This document shows positions 1 through 3,082 of a DNA stretch of 64,000 bases, piece after piece. A model generated the notes under the pieces. It saw only the letters and a list, made by a program, of their open reading frames with translations, was not told where the DNA came from and searched no databases. Source of the DNA: a phage. A program made the translations under genes and the position numbers. The DNA lies in assembly GCA_027218345.1 (NCBI GenBank), contig GCA_027218345.1_3950.1. One strand, written 5' to 3'. Numbering within the stretch: position 1 is the stretch's first letter; every line of letters starts with the position of its first letter.

Positions 1-232
1 ATCAGGTTTTTCCCACGTCCAGCAAGTGCATTGAGAATAGTTTTTTCGCTTGAAAGCGTACCATCTATCATAGTTGCCGTGTAGTGGTTGATTTTATTCC
101 CGTTGATATCATACTTAAAATTGAATGCGTGAACAACAATTTTATTCCCTTTAAAATTCTCATCAAGTGACTTCTCCAGTGCGTTGCGAAAGTTGTCTTT
201 GTTGATGAATTTAGGTGCACGATATGCCATTT
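1..232 (-). CDS. hypothetical protein, 5' part only (gene runs off window start)
   Basis: ATG at 230-232 preceded by GGAG-like RBS; open frame to window edge on minus strand (MAYRAPKFINKDNF...); not in ORF track because truncated. Confidence 0.35.
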
Positions 233-445
233 TTGAATCTCCAGTTTAGGACTTTATTTAGTGGGGAAGGTCATTCCCTCCCCGTTGATGCAAATACTAG
301 ATAACCACGTTCAAAGAGTCAAGAAAAAATTTTAAAAATATTTTTGGCAAAACTGTAATGAAACGGGCGCACACGACTACCACAAAACAGAACACAAATC
401 AAGAATTATTTCTCAATCCGCTACAAATTTTTCTCTTGACTTTTG

Positions 446-480
446 GGGAGAGGGGGAGTAAGAGGGGGAGAGGGGTTGGT
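446..480 (+). repeat. G-tract run (GGGG-AGA-GGGGG-AGTAAGA-GGGGG-AGA-GGGG), potential G-quadruplex
   Basis: Four runs of 4 or more G separated by 3-7 nt in an otherwise AT-rich non-coding region. Confidence 0.4.
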
Positions 481-499
481 CTGGCTCTCTATAAAAACC

Positions 500-690
500 T
501 ACCTGCACAATCCTAAAATGATTTTTCTTGCCCGACCTGAGTGTGGTCTGCACGTTTTGAAAATGAAAAAGCTCTTTGGAGATTATCTGCACAGTTTGAA
601 AATGAATTTTCTCTTTGGAGTTCAAAATTCTCTCTACAGATTTCTCTACAGAACTCTACCTGCACAATTCTGAAATGAAAAAGCCCTCCT
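500..690. repeat. iteron-like direct repeats (4 copies of CTGCACRNTTYYRAAAATGA..., 25-35 bp)
   Basis: Copies at about 501-532, 550-584, 588-622, 655-688; also tandem TCTCTACAGA at 627-648; non-coding. Confidence 0.5.
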
Positions 691-751
691 TACCTGAAAA
701 ATTTACCAGATAAGAAAGGCTTAGGCTATTGTGAATATACTACAGAGTTTC

Positions 752-1537
752 TTAGTTCTTTGCGTCTAAGAAGGTAACTTCTGGTGAAGAGAAAACTGTC
801 TCGATATCCTCATCAGTTCTTGCATAGATATAAGTATCTGCATCACTGCCAAATGTTACTGCAATCCTGTGATTGCTCTTCGACAGGTGGGTAACTAGAG
901 CGTTACTCAGAGACATCTTTTCAACCGGAGGGTTACTTTGATGTATCTTACCTTTTCTTCGTCTGAAGAGGGTAACTGCGTTATCTGTGAACACTGCTAC
1001 ACCTGCAAAGTATTCTGGTTCACAGTAGTTCTTCCAACCTGAGAGTAACTTGTGGTACATCTCTCCTTCATAGACATATAGATAAACATCTACACTCTTC
1101 ATCACCTGATTGATGATAACTGTGACGGCTTGAGGGTCAAGTCCATCGATACCTGCACCAATCATAGGTAAACCAACTTTCTTCAACTGATTGACTTCAC
1201 AGTATCTGTTAAGCTGCTTCAAAGATGACTCTAAAGCACTGTATCGGGCATCTTTACCAGTATGAAGTTGGGTGTAAAGGTTAGCTATACGACCTTGTTT
1301 TAAACGTGCTACAGAGAAATTACCTAGTAAATTTTCACAGGGTTTGTGGCGAATGCCACCTGCAAACAGGTAAACTTCTGTGTCAGTATCATACACTTTT
1401 GGATAACGCTTAGAAATAGTTGCTGCAATACCTGCACCCATGAAATTCATACAGTTGCAACCATGACCAATGATGTCAAACTTACCTTTATCAAATGCGT
1501 CAAATATATCGCCATTGATGATTTTTACAATACCCAT
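752..1537 (-). CDS. macro-domain protein (TARG1/DarG-like ADP-ribose hydrolase fold) with about 100-aa C-terminal extension
   Basis: N-terminal GDIF..DIIGHGCNC..MGAGIA and later PMIGAGIDGLD resemble TARG1 GDLF..LAHCIS.DCRMGAGIA / PRIGCGLDRL. Confidence 0.5.
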   Translation of the reverse strand: MGIVKIINGDIFDAFDKGKFDIIGHGCNCMNFMGAGIAATISKRYPKVYDTDTEVYLFAGGIRHKPCENLLGNFSVARLKQGRIANLYTQLHTGKDARYSALESSLKQLNRYCEVNQLKKVGLPMIGAGIDGLDPQAVTVIINQVMKSVDVYLYVYEGEMYHKLLSGWKNYCEPEYFAGVAVFTDNAVTLFRRRKGKIHQSNPPVEKMSLSNALVTHLSKSNHRIAVTFGSDADTYIYARTDEDIETVFSSPEVTFLDAKN

Positions 1538-1738
1538 TTAACATCTCTCCCAAGATTCTTTATCTTCTGAAGGCTTTACACGTTGCCCTTCGTGGTCTAC
1601 CCAGATACATCCACAACCTTCACAGATTACTGGCATTGCATAGCCAGCTTTAAAGTCATCTTCAGTGATAAGACCTTTTAAGTCTCCTGTATCACGCCCG
1701 AACATTTCGATAGCACAATCTTTGCAGAAGTCAGCCAT
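1538..1738 (-). CDS. small Cys-rich (zinc-ribbon-like) protein
   Basis: ORF 1538-1816; probable start at internal Met (MADFCKDC...CEGCGC); CxxC pairs. Confidence 0.3.
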   Translation of the reverse strand: MADFCKDCAIEMFGRDTGDLKGLITEDDFKAGYAMPVICEGCGCIWVDHEGQRVKPSEDKESWERC

Positions 1739-1958
1739 GAATAATTGCCTCTTGAATGATGATACCTTTGCCACAACGACTTTTGAAGTCTTCCAATGGT
1801 TGTGAGATGAAGCCACGCAAGCAATAACTAAATGCTAATTTTTCCCTGTAGGCTATCACATCATTTGCTGTAAATGGAATCACTTTATTTCTTCCAATGA
1901 ATACTGCTGAACGTACAATCTTGCGGGTCTTTTTATCTCTGGCTAGTATTACTTTCAT
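1731..1958 (-). CDS. hypothetical protein
   Basis: 75-aa ORF in co-directional gene array. Confidence 0.3.
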   Translation of the reverse strand: MKVILARDKKTRKIVRSAVFIGRNKVIPFTANDVIAYREKLAFSYCLRGFISQPLEDFKSRCGKGIIIQEAIIHG

Positions 1959-2259
1959 AGTTTACCTTCTCAGTTAGCTCATACAAGTCAACATGCTCAA
2001 TGCTATCAATGTTGATACCAATCTTTTTGAAGCGTTCTATCACTTCGTTGTCAGTCATCCATATCAGACACCAATGATTCTGAATGGATTCTTCAAGAAG
2101 GTCAACACAATCTTTAAAAGTTTTTGTATCACTTCTTGTTCCGACTACTGCGATTGTCCCATACAACCACTTACCATTACCATAAGATACTTGTGCTACG
2201 CCAACTTCTTTATCTTTCTCGTAGTAAACGGCTACAAAGTCTCTTCCATTAATCTGCAT
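1933..2259 (-). CDS. hypothetical protein
   Basis: 108-aa ORF, tightly packed with neighbours. Confidence 0.35.
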   Translation of the reverse strand: MQINGRDFVAVYYEKDKEVGVAQVSYGNGKWLYGTIAVVGTRSDTKTFKDCVDLLEESIQNHWCLIWMTDNEVIERFKKIGINIDSIEHVDLYELTEKVNYESNTSQR

Positions 2260-2261
2260 AG

Positions 2262-2534
2262 TTACTTCCTCGTTTTAAGAACTGCTAAGATTTCTTTAGA
2301 GTCTGGTAAGAACCATGTGTAGTGATTCTCTTTGATTTCTGGATGAGTGTCAACCTTTATTTTGCACTCTTTACCAACATGCTTAAGCTGTGCTGTGATA
2401 CCTTGCATAAAGATGTGACACATTACATTATCCATAATCGTAGGTAAGAAATCAATCCTCATGTAAGTATCTTTCGGTCTCGGTAGAAGTAAGTAACCTT
2501 CTGTGTAGAAAGTTTCATCATTACTTTGTGTCAT
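2262..2534 (-). CDS. hypothetical protein
   Basis: 90-aa ORF; stop abuts next gene. Confidence 0.35.
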   Translation of the reverse strand: MTQSNDETFYTEGYLLLPRPKDTYMRIDFLPTIMDNVMCHIFMQGITAQLKHVGKECKIKVDTHPEIKENHYTWFLPDSKEILAVLKTRK

Positions 2535-2800
2535 TACTGCTTATTCCCTAATAAAATCATATCAATCAAGTTGTTAGCTTTCATAGTACACTGATAGTAC
2601 CCGTCACGATAAAACTCAAGGGCTTCTGATAAGTCTGCACCAGTGTTACCTTTGACAGCATATCTTACATCTTCCTGAGTGTACTTATCACTTTCACTTA
2701 CTTGGGAGTTTTTGAATGTATTGCTCACTTTGTTCGTTGAACACCCTGACATAGTTATCAGTAACACAAACATTATAAAACTCTGGCTTAGTCTTTTCAT
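2534..2800 (-). CDS. outer-membrane lipoprotein, candidate o-spanin
   Basis: Signal peptide with lipobox LITMSGC; start overlaps 3' end of upstream TM protein gene in another frame. Confidence 0.45.
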   Translation of the reverse strand: MKRLSQSFIMFVLLITMSGCSTNKVSNTFKNSQVSESDKYTQEDVRYAVKGNTGADLSEALEFYRDGYYQCTMKANNLIDMILLGNKQ

Positions 2801-3041
2801 ATGTCAGTACCTCTTTTGTGTGCTTATTCTTAGCAAGCACGTCTTTCAAATCATTTTTGTAATTGGTGCTCAGTGTAGCTAATCCTTCCTGATAAGCATC
2901 TTTAGCAACACTTATTAGCTTCTGGTTGTTTAGCTCAGTTTCAGCAACTTGGTAGTCTCTATAAGAGTATCCTCCCCAGACACCTGCCCCAACTAAGAAA
3001 ACAATTATGAAAGTAGCTTGACAGAACTCTTTAAATGTCAT
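2694..3041 (-). CDS. N-terminal-anchored membrane protein, candidate i-spanin
   Basis: Single N-terminal TM segment (FIIVFLVGAGVWGGYSY) then periplasmic helical domain; overlaps lipoprotein gene. Confidence 0.45.
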   Translation of the reverse strand: MTFKEFCQATFIIVFLVGAGVWGGYSYRDYQVAETELNNQKLISVAKDAYQEGLATLSTNYKNDLKDVLAKNKHTKEVLTYEKTKPEFYNVCVTDNYVRVFNEQSEQYIQKLPSK

Positions 3042-3060
3042 TTAACAATCTCCTGAAATG

Positions 3061-3082
3061 AAAAAGGCTCCCGAAGGAGCCT
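3061..3082 (-). terminator. rho-independent terminator (AGGCTCC-CGAA-GGAGCCT hairpin, U-run on minus strand)
   Basis: Perfect 7-bp GC-rich stem with tetraloop; A-run on plus side means U-run in minus transcript. Confidence 0.55.

Follow-up and report, generated by a model that had tools for sequence, protein, structure and literature searches.

A conserved, single-locus array of direct repeats between a terminator and an early promoter of a Felix O1-like phage: a putative protein-binding control element

A non-coding gap in a Felixounavirus (Felix O1-like myophage) holds an array of four direct repeats which, in the sequences compared, is the one non-coding element retained across the whole subfamily. 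We tentatively read this array as a cluster of cis-acting protein-binding sites that would serve as an upstream control or boundary element for the early promoter P1, with a probability of roughly 0.35, and we slightly prefer this kind of early-promoter or boundary control to a replication origin. The gap spans positions 231-751 of the window, that is, of the whole 64-kb stretch of DNA analysed here, and is enclosed by two minus-strand genes, the left one starting with its ATG at 230-228 and the right one ending with its stop codon at 754-752. Read along transcription, the terminator t13 is followed by the four direct repeats, a G/C tract, a conserved block, an A/T tract and finally P1 (Table 1). 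The initial annotation had already described an ORF-poor non-coding region (given as 233-751), four direct repeat copies at about 501, 550, 588 and 655, and a tandem pair of TCTCTACAGA; all three are borne out, with corrected gap limits, small shifts in the repeat coordinates, and the two members of the pair located at 631 and 643.

Table 1. Features of the gap in 5' to 3' order on the minus strand (positions in the window)
Feature	Position	Strand	Basis or remark
Rho-independent terminator t13	681-722	-	17-pair stem then TTTCATTTCA (terminator scan)
Repeat unit A	659-693; core 660/661-678, TCATTTCAGAATTGTGCA on minus strand	-	repeat and motif scans
Tandem TCTCTACAGA pair	631-652	no strand	in the 73-bp gap between units A and B
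Repeat unit B	586-620; core 587/588-605	-	repeat and motif scans
Repeat unit C	547-581; core 548/549-566	-	repeat and motif scans
Repeat unit D	499-528; core 503/504-521	-	repeat and motif scans
G-rich homopurine mirror repeat	445-475	+	G4-/H-DNA-capable; C-rich on transcribed strand
Conserved block	355-444	no strand	alignments; common to three genera
A/T tract, UP-element-like, upstream of P1	323-350	-	26/30 A/T; conserved across genera
Sigma-70 early promoter P1, TTGACT-17-TAGTAT	294-322	-	promoter scan; annotated as promoter in ASO1B
5'-UTR hairpin GGGGAGGGAATGACCTTCCCC	263-283	-	read from sequence
First early gene: RBS GGAG 242-239, ATG 230-228	downstream of 5'-UTR hairpin	-	

The repeat core comprises 18 bases, TCATTTY-N-RR-NN-Y-GTGCA in the minus-strand reading, and its two halves, TCATTT and GTGCA, start 13 bp apart, about one helical turn. 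Scanning the window with the core motif returned the four local matches and one weak match elsewhere versus 0.16 expected, and none of 100 shuffles reached five matches; no further strong core copy was found elsewhere in the window or in the complete genome of phage LMP33. Beyond the core, the extended copies at 547-581, 586-620 and 659-693 are 100, 83 and 66 % alike, and those at 486-521 and 643-678 are 83 % alike. The units are spaced 73/39/45 bp apart, so that, by hand arithmetic at 10.5 bp per turn, units A and B are separated by 6.95 turns (73 bp) and units B and D by 8.0 turns (84 bp); units A, B and D thus lie near-integral turns apart, and unit C does not. At the upstream end of the array, the U-tract of t13 (~680-671) doubles as the start of repeat unit A, whose first 14 nucleotides (CTTTTTCATTTCAG) are identical to the tail of another terminator, t5, at 3053-3066. 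By inspection, units B and C retain a 3-bp remnant stem.

Both core and spacing are kept in Felixounavirus, Suspvirus, Mooglevirus and Kolesnikvirus, and the core also in an uncultured lineage (locus L060) whose proteins are only 30-38 % identical; the initial annotation would have been undermined by absence of the repeats from related genomes, and they are present in four genera plus this lineage. In Kolesnikvirus the core survives next to a macro-domain protein that is 40 % identical. In three genera the distances are 73-77, 39-41 and 45 bp; in Kolesnikvirus (locus L026) they are 37/37/39 bp, an extra repeat unit occupying the place of the A-B gap seen here, and a three-unit variant of the array retains a 75/45 spacing. 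Altogether, relatives carry three to five units, all in a single orientation. Within the gap, conservation is highest in the repeats, with a column identity of 0.86-0.98; P1 reaches 0.58-0.85 and the flanking ends of the coding sequences about 0.8. The array follows the macro-domain gene in all cases, the gene downstream differs between phages, and in all lineages examined apart from the uncultured one the last unit is followed, at a distance of 171-205 bp, by a promoter of the form TTGAC-17-TAnTAT. As for more distant homologues, relaxed two-copy scans of IMG/VR and metagenomes returned only arrays of the Ounavirinae type and unrelated tandem repeats. The contigs with such arrays had the size of Ounavirinae genomes or, where they were short, carried the Ounavirinae version of the repeat. 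Because the array is kept beyond a divergence of proteins to 30-40 % identity, it almost certainly marks a core cis-acting function that would be read by a very conserved factor. Being both unique and strongly selected, the array therefore has a plausible role in regulation or as an origin.

The sequence of t13 is listed under this name in Table 2 of the Felix O1 study (PMC3185647), and the annotations of phages KhF2 and ASO1B mark it as a terminator; on the transcribed strand it has the G+C-rich hairpin and subsequent U-tract expected of an intrinsic terminator. It closes the long rIIA-to-macro operon, which ends with the macro-domain gene adjacent to the array (Pfam E = 2e-6, in a flank domain scan that covered this protein only); the other neighbour is a variable small ORF. 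P1, about 180 bp downstream of the array, is the first sigma-70 promoter of a block of 13 early genes running to the right genome end. The A/T tract abuts the -35 element of P1 at 150 bp from the repeats, comes close with its 26 A/T bases in 30 to the window maximum of 27, and looks like a P1 UP element. Furthermore, an inverted repeat (314-333 / 425-444) connects the two sides of this region, the conserved block holding at 436-441 on the plus strand a TTGACT that is an inverted copy of the P1 -35/UP region. A plus-strand promoter at 436-464 was considered and rejected, since its -35 element is conserved but its -10 element is poor and promoter scans did not call it. The hairpin-RBS-ATG module that opens the first early gene recurs between small early genes of phage LMP33.

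That a protein binds here, what it would be and how it would affect transcription we infer as follows. The four repeats would be tandem DNA binding sites for one sequence-specific factor, which would build a nucleoprotein complex of about 160 bp just after t13 and about 180 bp upstream of P1. Such a complex may set or shut off the activity of P1, and it may also shield the early block from read-through transcription of the upstream operon. The G/C tract would be a fixed-length spacer module that the array does not require, although in this phage it could provide a second barrier, either as a C-rich Rho-loading RNA or as a template-strand G4 or H-DNA. As the motif is constant across phage lineages, the binder would itself be very conserved, for instance a host factor or a core replication protein. 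Compared by eye with the consensus sequences of Fis, IHF, CRP, Lrp, marbox, sigma-54, sigma-32, sigma-E and lambda boxA, the core gave no convincing fit. The literature yielded no transcript, footprint or mutant data on the array, and in the relevant papers neither the core nor the G tract appears, G/C strings being found in two unrelated papers only. Two features fit early-promoter control less comfortably: the sites are 180-370 bp upstream of P1, a long distance by the standards of classical operators, and the other early promoters inside the terminal block have no such core sites, which is odd for a general early-gene regulator.

A very conserved binder fits a replication origin equally well, and an origin in which the repeats serve as iterons for an initiator or the phage helicase-primase, helped by the strong promoter and the A/T tract, is a possible though doubtful alternative. 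Consistent with it, the array is a single locus per genome with three to five direct repeats in one orientation (four cores in this phage, iterons calling for at least three at a single locus) and a two-part asymmetric core; its extreme conservation would suit a site that conserved replication or host proteins recognize, it has an A/T tract and a strong promoter nearby, and the literature offered no mapped origin for Felix O1-like phages. However, classical iterons have a period of 17-23 bp, whereas that of the array is 37-45 bp. No cognate initiator gene was seen among the flanking genes (the macro-domain gene and the small ORF), and the genes for DNA polymerase and primase-helicase are about 25-30 kb away. 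Moreover, the A/T tract, 150 bp removed from the repeats, reads as the UP element of P1, transcription from P1 runs away from the array and upstream transcription is stopped at t13, the GC skew only follows gene orientation, and a rival candidate for the origin exists at the terminal repeat, in a non-coding region of 1.6 kb that is dense in repeats. DnaA boxes were sought by scan and by hand and rejected: no match to TTWTNCACA of at least 8/9 occurs in the array of this window, where the scan gave 6-7/9 and comparison by hand 5-7/9. The units of Kolesnikvirus do reach 8/9, but such matches occur about 2.5 times per kb genome-wide.

The G-rich tract is the most conspicuous sequence of the gap, and the initial annotation had given it a central place. 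It was right about a purine tract with four G-runs that stands out from the genome, but not about its position, since GGGGAGAGGGGGAGTAAGAGGGGGAGAGGGG lies at 445-475 instead of 446-480. On both strands of the 64 kb, no other sequence fits the canonical G4 motif (four runs of G>=3 with loops of 1-7 nt); the tract has four runs of G4-5 separated by loops of 3, 7 and 3 nt, and holds four of the 42 runs of at least four G in the window. It is also a 29/31 mirror repeat with 14-nt arms around a TAA centre and one T interruption, and so a potential H-DNA-forming sequence, for which arms of at least ~10 nt are expected. The most G-over-C-skewed 60-nt stretch of the window contains the tract (27 G versus 4 C); correspondingly, the minus-sense RNA of 425-484 has 27 C versus 4 G, a window extreme. 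A Rho-loading (rut) site would be a C-rich, G-poor RNA segment of about 60-80 nt; the alternative allele described below, however, is not C-rich. That the tract itself, as G-quadruplex or H-DNA triplex, would be the functional element is nevertheless unlikely. Its singularity in the window and its mirror arms speak for such a role, as do a predicted G4-aware fold favoured by about 12 kcal/mol (-28.8 versus -17.1 kcal/mol without G4) and C-rich tracts at the equivalent place in Suspvirus, Mooglevirus and, shorter, Kolesnikvirus. However, the tract lies in a 54-nt spacer whose length is conserved and whose sequence is replaceable: about one third of the unique arrays (~11/33) carry an unrelated 54-nt allele instead, unit D and the conserved block being 59 nt apart in both Felixounavirus alleles, and the uncultured lineage has AT-rich sequence there. 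Repeats and conserved block are intact in all arrays in which the tract is replaced. Because about a third of the related arrays have an unrelated stretch of equal length, the tract is, on this comparison, a replaceable and not an essential part of the array, and a central role for it is not supported.

Could the array act as RNA rather than DNA? A structured non-coding RNA was rejected, as there is neither a conserved fold nor a known family: the RNAalifold consensus energies of the two strands were -3.0 and 0 kcal/mol, single-sequence folds had z-scores of -1.7 and +1.3, and a permissive Rfam search gave nothing below E = 0.9 in the region. A repeat-unit RNA, in its most specific version a decoy for abortive-infection toxins of type III (ToxN/AbiQ family), is quite unlikely, although the pseudo-ToxI repeats of phage phiTE provide a precedent for such a decoy (PMC3475682). 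At 37-45 nt the units have a length in keeping with type III antitoxin repeats, those of the enterobacterial loci measuring 35-38 nt, and a conserved TTGACT is located upstream on the plus strand. ToxN cleaves at AA^AU, and AAAU is present in every unit on the plus strand. Furthermore, a two-copy pattern run against 185,579 bacterial genomes had as its sole match the 37-nt repeat array of a genuine toxIN locus (Pfam ToxN E = 2.7e-47), which shares TGCACAnnCCTAAAATGA with unit D in plus-strand orientation; yet we estimate that one match in 596 Gb is within chance for a ~27-bit pattern inside tandem repeats. Similarity among the array units is only 66-83 %, against near-identity in ToxI, and the units lack both an Rfam match and a conserved fold. 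BLAST searches of 72,556 plasmids and of 5,426 E. coli genomes detected nothing similar to the array, and the enterobacterial ToxI of seven toxIN loci shares just the 11-mer GTGCAGnTAGA, on the opposite strand. Neither strand offers a promoter-repeats-terminator layout, as the plus strand has a poor -10 and no U-tract terminator and the minus strand has its terminator before the repeats. Finally, the universal and position-fixed conservation of the array does not resemble that of accessory anti-defence loci.

Regarding the genome ends, the initial annotation was correct in proposing an iteron-like array of protein-binding type, which proves to be non-coding, unique and under selection, but its suggestion of packaging or a physical end at this place does not hold. 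In the close relative Pr103Blw, PhageTerm data place a direct terminal repeat of 581 bp at 87,841-88,421 and the array gap at 81,479-81,999, about 6.7 kb off, and the KhF1 record breaks at the array only through an untrimmed circular overlap, with 377 bp present at both record ends. We know of no report of two-step DNA transfer in Felix O1-like phages. By analogy with the injection stop signal of T5, the array might nonetheless be a DNA-entry checkpoint, which we regard as very unlikely. In that case the right-terminal ~6.7 kb (7.6 % of the genome, with 13 small host-takeover genes) would enter first, a conserved host factor would hold up entry at the array, and entry would resume once early proteins were made. 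The geometry is suggestive, as the array of Pr103Blw lies ~6.7 kb, or 7.6 % of 88.4 kb, from the right physical end and borders, on its inner side, a terminal block whose 13 small genes are transcribed toward that end. In T5, the first-step transfer comprises 7.9 % of the genome and the stop region is a non-coding repeat cluster more conserved than its neighbouring ORFs, a property shared by the array. However, the DnaA boxes proposed for the T5 stop region have no counterpart in the array, which is also much shorter (~200 bp versus 1.2 kb).

Several annotators have called ORFs in this region. Those at 443-673 on the plus strand and 413-625 on the minus strand, listed in the initial annotation as low-complexity translations of the repeats, do exist and have no coding signature, and protein-coding ORFs were rejected on either strand: variable sites are evenly distributed over the three codon positions in all four candidate ORFs (65/62/63, 33/33/32, 59/57/61 and 39/39/38), and indels of 2 and 4 nt between genera, which are not multiples of three, break the frames. 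ORFs annotated across the array are thus spurious, which calls for caution by annotators. A functionless relic, formed by decayed duplicates of a terminator tail plus junction or by translated small ORFs, is strongly disfavoured: the t5 tail in unit A, the remnant stems of units B and C and the ORF calls would accord with it, but conservation exceeds that of the flanking coding sequence and persists at 30-40 % protein identity, the spacing of the units is conserved, and third-codon-position bias is missing along with frame-preserving indels.

Felix O1-like phages are widely used for typing, biocontrol and therapy of Salmonella and E. coli. The array offers a handle of 200 bp in these phages for pull-downs, scrambling mutants and strand-specific transcript mapping.

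Set beside known systems, the gap shares individual traits with several. Its G tract resembles other homopurine mirror repeats and canonical G4 motifs in its G-runs and mirror arms, but is not conserved among close relatives. With ToxI and the pseudo-ToxI RNAs of phage phiTE the array has in common tandem units of ~36-45 nt in a phage intergenic region with an AAAU in each; unlike them, its units are heterogeneous and show no one-strand arrangement of promoter, repeats and terminator, no Rfam match and no resemblance to enterobacterial ToxI. The injection stop of T5 (Repeat Region 3 of the first-step-transfer DNA) is likewise situated ~8 % from a genome end at the inner edge of small early genes, yet it extends over 1.2 kb and contains inverted repeats, palindromes and paired DnaA boxes, in contrast to four direct 18-bp cores devoid of a DnaA consensus. 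Iteron origins, such as lambda ori, those of iteron plasmids and T4 oriE, differ in their period of ~20 bp, in having a neighbouring initiator gene and in an A/T stretch adjacent to the repeats. Nevertheless, they too combine several direct repeats of one orientation at one non-coding locus with an A/T stretch and a promoter near, and, like iterons, the array has asymmetric cores that a single protein could recognize through contacts in two successive major grooves.

Four direct repeats, units A to D, occupy the 521-bp gap at 231-751 between two co-directional genes, and all genes around them lie on the minus strand. Their cores (503-521, 548-566, 587-605 and 660-678 in plus-strand coordinates) bear out the repeats claimed in the initial annotation, and the tandem pair (TCTCTACAGA at 631 and 643) and the ORFs that it named are present as well. 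The extended copies are 66-83% alike. Within the window, the core TCATTTY-N-RR-NN-Y-GTGCA, read on the minus strand, is confined to the array: four local matches, together with one weak match elsewhere in the window, compare with 0.16 expected, and five were reached in 0 of 100 shuffles. Both half-sites, TCATTT and GTGCA, are invariant, their starts being 13 bp apart, about one helical turn; all units are in direct orientation with preserved spacing, and near-integral helical turns separate units A, B and D. Unit A begins with 14 nt that also form the tail of t5 (3053-3066), a further Felix O1 terminator, so the units may have arisen by duplication of terminator tails, with a binding role acquired later. 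Furthermore, t5 and the terminator t13 have the tail CTTTTTCATTTCAG in common (3053-3066 and 673-683), and the 11-mer CTTTTTCATTT occurs three times in the window against 0.16 expected, two of the three inside the array.

Anatomy of the gap and its flanks in the direction of transcription
Feature	Position	Strand	Remarks
Macro-domain protein ORF, 261 aa	752-1537	minus	Pfam Macro E = 2e-6
Macro gene stop codon	754-752	minus	
Strong intrinsic terminator t13	722-681	minus	sequence in Felix O1 genome paper (PMC3185647); annotated terminator in relatives
Repeat unit A	659-693	minus	first bases are the t13 U-tract
73-bp gap between units A and B			contains TCTGTAGAGA pair
Repeat units B, C and D	586-620, 547-581, 499-528	minus	in that order after the 73-bp gap
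C-rich tract		minus	after unit D
Conserved block, about 90 nt			between C-rich tract and A/T tract
A/T tract			between conserved block and P1
Sigma-70 promoter P1, TTGACT-17-TAGTAT	322-294	minus	
5'-UTR hairpin, then RBS, then ATG	283-263 (hairpin)	minus	
Small early gene, left of array	230-228 (ATG)	minus	continues past window edge

The hairpin-plus-RBS module is found again between downstream small early genes, which is why BLAST gives several places per record. These genes are separated by two families of recurring intergenic modules of about 60-90 bp (window 263-283, minus strand; LMP33 locus L004, 11510-17206), one consisting of the hairpin GGGGAGGGAATGACCTTCCCC followed by TAAACTGGAGATTCAAAA-ATG and the other built on GGGGCTTA...TAAGCCCC. 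Since most are without a promoter, they resemble cassettes for processing or translation initiation. They match in part the 57-bp and 39-bp repeats of the Felix O1 genome paper, which also tabulates t13 and other direct repeats of at least 24 bp, the array and the G tract being absent there (PMC3185647). As to the macro-domain protein, its N-terminal Macro domain is conserved while the C-terminal part is variable or absent, with lengths of 261 aa in the window, 259 aa with a different C-terminus at locus L018 (3561-4340), and 148 aa at L060 (1170-1616), a divergent uncultured lineage.

Bases 1-3000 of the window have matches in 251 phage records, almost all from Felixounavirus (Felix O1-like myophages with genomes of 84-90 kb and a G+C content of about 39%), the best being 92-94% identical. 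The gap itself was found in 275 phage records, the match in Erwinia phages being limited to the repeats, and in the complete LMP33 genome, 99% identical over the gap, the core again occurs at a single locus. Alignments place the units in Felixounavirus, Suspvirus and Mooglevirus (spacing 73-77/39-41/45 bp) and in Kolesnikvirus (four units, 37/37/39 bp), and a three-unit variant retains the 75/45 spacing. The array extends to L060, an uncultured 88-kb contig for which a nucleotide match to GenBank phages was not found; here five units spaced by about 37-38 bp directly follow the macro gene, and identity to the window's proteins is only 38% for the macro and 30% for the kinase-like protein (40% for the Kolesnikvirus macro protein). 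The repeats are the best-conserved gap columns of the alignment (0.86-0.98), above P1 and the flanking gene ends. Furthermore, the macro gene always precedes the array and a strong TTGAC-17-TAnTAT promoter always lies 171-205 bp after it, whereas the gene following P1 varies among phages. When IMG/VR, JGI metagenomes and 185,579 bacterial species (one genome each) were scanned, the array turned up solely on contigs matching Ounavirinae in size or, where the contig was short, with Ounavirinae repeat sequence; the remaining matches were unrelated tandem repeats. On three metagenome contigs (L077, L078, L072), long arrays are built from identical copies of a 43-nt unit, AAAGTTATTATTGCAAGGTGCAAAATCATTTTTCCATTGTGGA, and are likewise unrelated to the phage. 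From these comparisons we infer purifying selection on a non-coding element rather than shared recent ancestry.

Several identities of the array were rejected. In each of the four candidate ORFs, variable sites are spread evenly over the codon positions (e.g. 65/62/63), and genera are separated by indels of 2 and 4 nt, a pattern which indicates that the hypothetical proteins called across the array are spurious. Such annotations occur in LMP33 (L004, 10691-11059), Moogle115 (L010, 1078-1302), mistaenkt_18 (L011, 1113-1421), Panisse_00107 (L009, 1386-1550) and at locus L065 (2215-2373). A structured RNA was dismissed on consensus folding energies of -3.0 and 0 kcal/mol and single-sequence z-scores of -1.7 and +1.3; a Rfam search of the array region found nothing. 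In this phage, no array match to the DnaA box reached at least 8/9 (units 5-7/9 by hand); Kolesnikvirus units reach 8/9, but against a background of about 2.5 such matches per kb throughout. The packaging or physical-end role initially proposed fails as well: PhageTerm analysis of phage Pr103Blw (PMC8303462) gave direct terminal repeats of 581 bp, whose annotated positions are 1-581 and 87,841-88,421; the array gap, at 81,479-81,999, lies about 6.7 kb in from the right end. That the KhF1 record (KT184313.1) breaks within the gap is due solely to an untrimmed circular overlap: 377 bp, equivalent to 318-694 of the window, stand at both of its ends. In LMP33 (MK482689.1), a 127-bp repeat annotated at the record ends (1-127 and 88283-88409) lies within the structural-gene region and is unlikely to be a physical terminal repeat of the Pr103Blw type.

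The window contains, over both strands, a single canonical G4 motif, the purine tract at 445-475; the G4-capable four-run tract described initially thus exists, at these coordinates rather than at 446-480. It contains 4 of the window's 42 runs of at least four G, allowing for G4 improves its folding energy by about 12 kcal/mol, and the 60 nt around it are the window's most G-over-C-skewed stretch. The tract has 29/31 mirror symmetry as well, its two 14-nt arms flanking TAA, which had gone unnoticed and makes it a candidate for H-DNA too. However, in about 11 of 33 unique arrays the tract is replaced by an unrelated sequence that is not C-rich, with unchanged flanks and the same 59 nt from unit D to the conserved block, and L060 carries AT-rich sequence at its position. 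Therefore, judged by sequence, the tract is a spacer module of constrained length rather than the essential part. Read as transcribed RNA, the tract exceeds every other stretch of the window in C-richness and G-poverty, and has the composition of a Rho-loading site. In this phage, the C-rich RNA could act as such a site or, alternatively, the template strand could form G4 or H-DNA; either would strengthen the t13 barrier.

What, then, does the array do? Because the long rIIA-to-macro operon has its terminator before it and the 13-gene terminal early block has its first promoter after it, we tentatively favor, at a probability of about 35%, an element that bounds or controls early transcription. 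The one-turn distance between half-sites, their direct orientation, the preserved spacing, the A/B/D phasing and the length-constrained spacers of free sequence suggest that a DNA-reading protein would build a complex of about 160 bp on it. Since the motif stayed constant while the proteins of these lineages diverged heavily, its reader is probably either host-encoded or one of the phage's highly conserved core proteins.

The main rival to early-transcription control is an origin of replication, which would suit the uniqueness and iteron-like form of the array. However, the period is 37-45 bp, no initiator gene or unwinding element adjoins the array, and the repeat-dense terminal region competes as candidate origin, which leaves this role rather unlikely. 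In LMP33, that 1.6-kb non-coding region (L004, 17456-19103) holds the terminal repeat and dense CTTGTTA / TGTTAAGA / TTAACA repeats, and is a candidate packaging or origin site; a similar TTAACA-rich stretch directly follows the L060 array (about 600-770).

Phage phiTE carries pseudo-ToxI repeats that neutralise ToxN (PMC3475682), and the array might be a comparable RNA decoy. Unit length fits, and each unit has an AAAU site on the plus strand; furthermore, the only bacterial match to the two-copy pattern of the array lay in a 37-nt repeat array that precedes an authentic ToxN toxin gene. Yet enterobacterial ToxI repeats have only GTGCAGnTAGA in common with the array, on the opposite strand, a similar array occurs in none of the plasmids or E. 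coli genomes of the searched collections, the units are heterogeneous, and the promoter-repeats-terminator order is found on neither single strand. We have thus mostly rejected the decoy as improbable. The bacterial match is a complete type III toxIN locus in a metagenome-assembled Acetatifactor genome (L042, 6583-7200, on the same contig as L069), with a promoter, about 1.8 copies of a 37-nt repeat, a terminator and the ToxN gene (Pfam E = 2.7e-47) in that order, and its repeat shares TGCACAnnCCTAAAATGA with phage unit D. Small mobilisable plasmids of 4.6-6.4 kb from Salmonella and E. coli O157 (L045, L047, L048) also carry toxIN, with 4.6-6.6 repeats of AGGTGATTTGCTACCTTTAAGTGCAGCTAGAAATT(C/T), which we take to be the Pectobacterium ToxI unit; diverged units of 36-38 nt occur at other enterobacterial toxIN loci.

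A DNA-entry checkpoint like that of T5, which would fit a location 7.6% of genome length from the end and repeats more conserved than the adjacent ORFs, as in the T5 pattern, is a long shot. The sequences of the array and the G tract were not found in the relevant papers searched, the G/C strings appearing only in two unrelated ones, and the array stands out as the most clearly conserved non-coding signal of a phage family in wide use. Its form is nonetheless a familiar one, that of a cis-acting repeat array, and nothing exotic.
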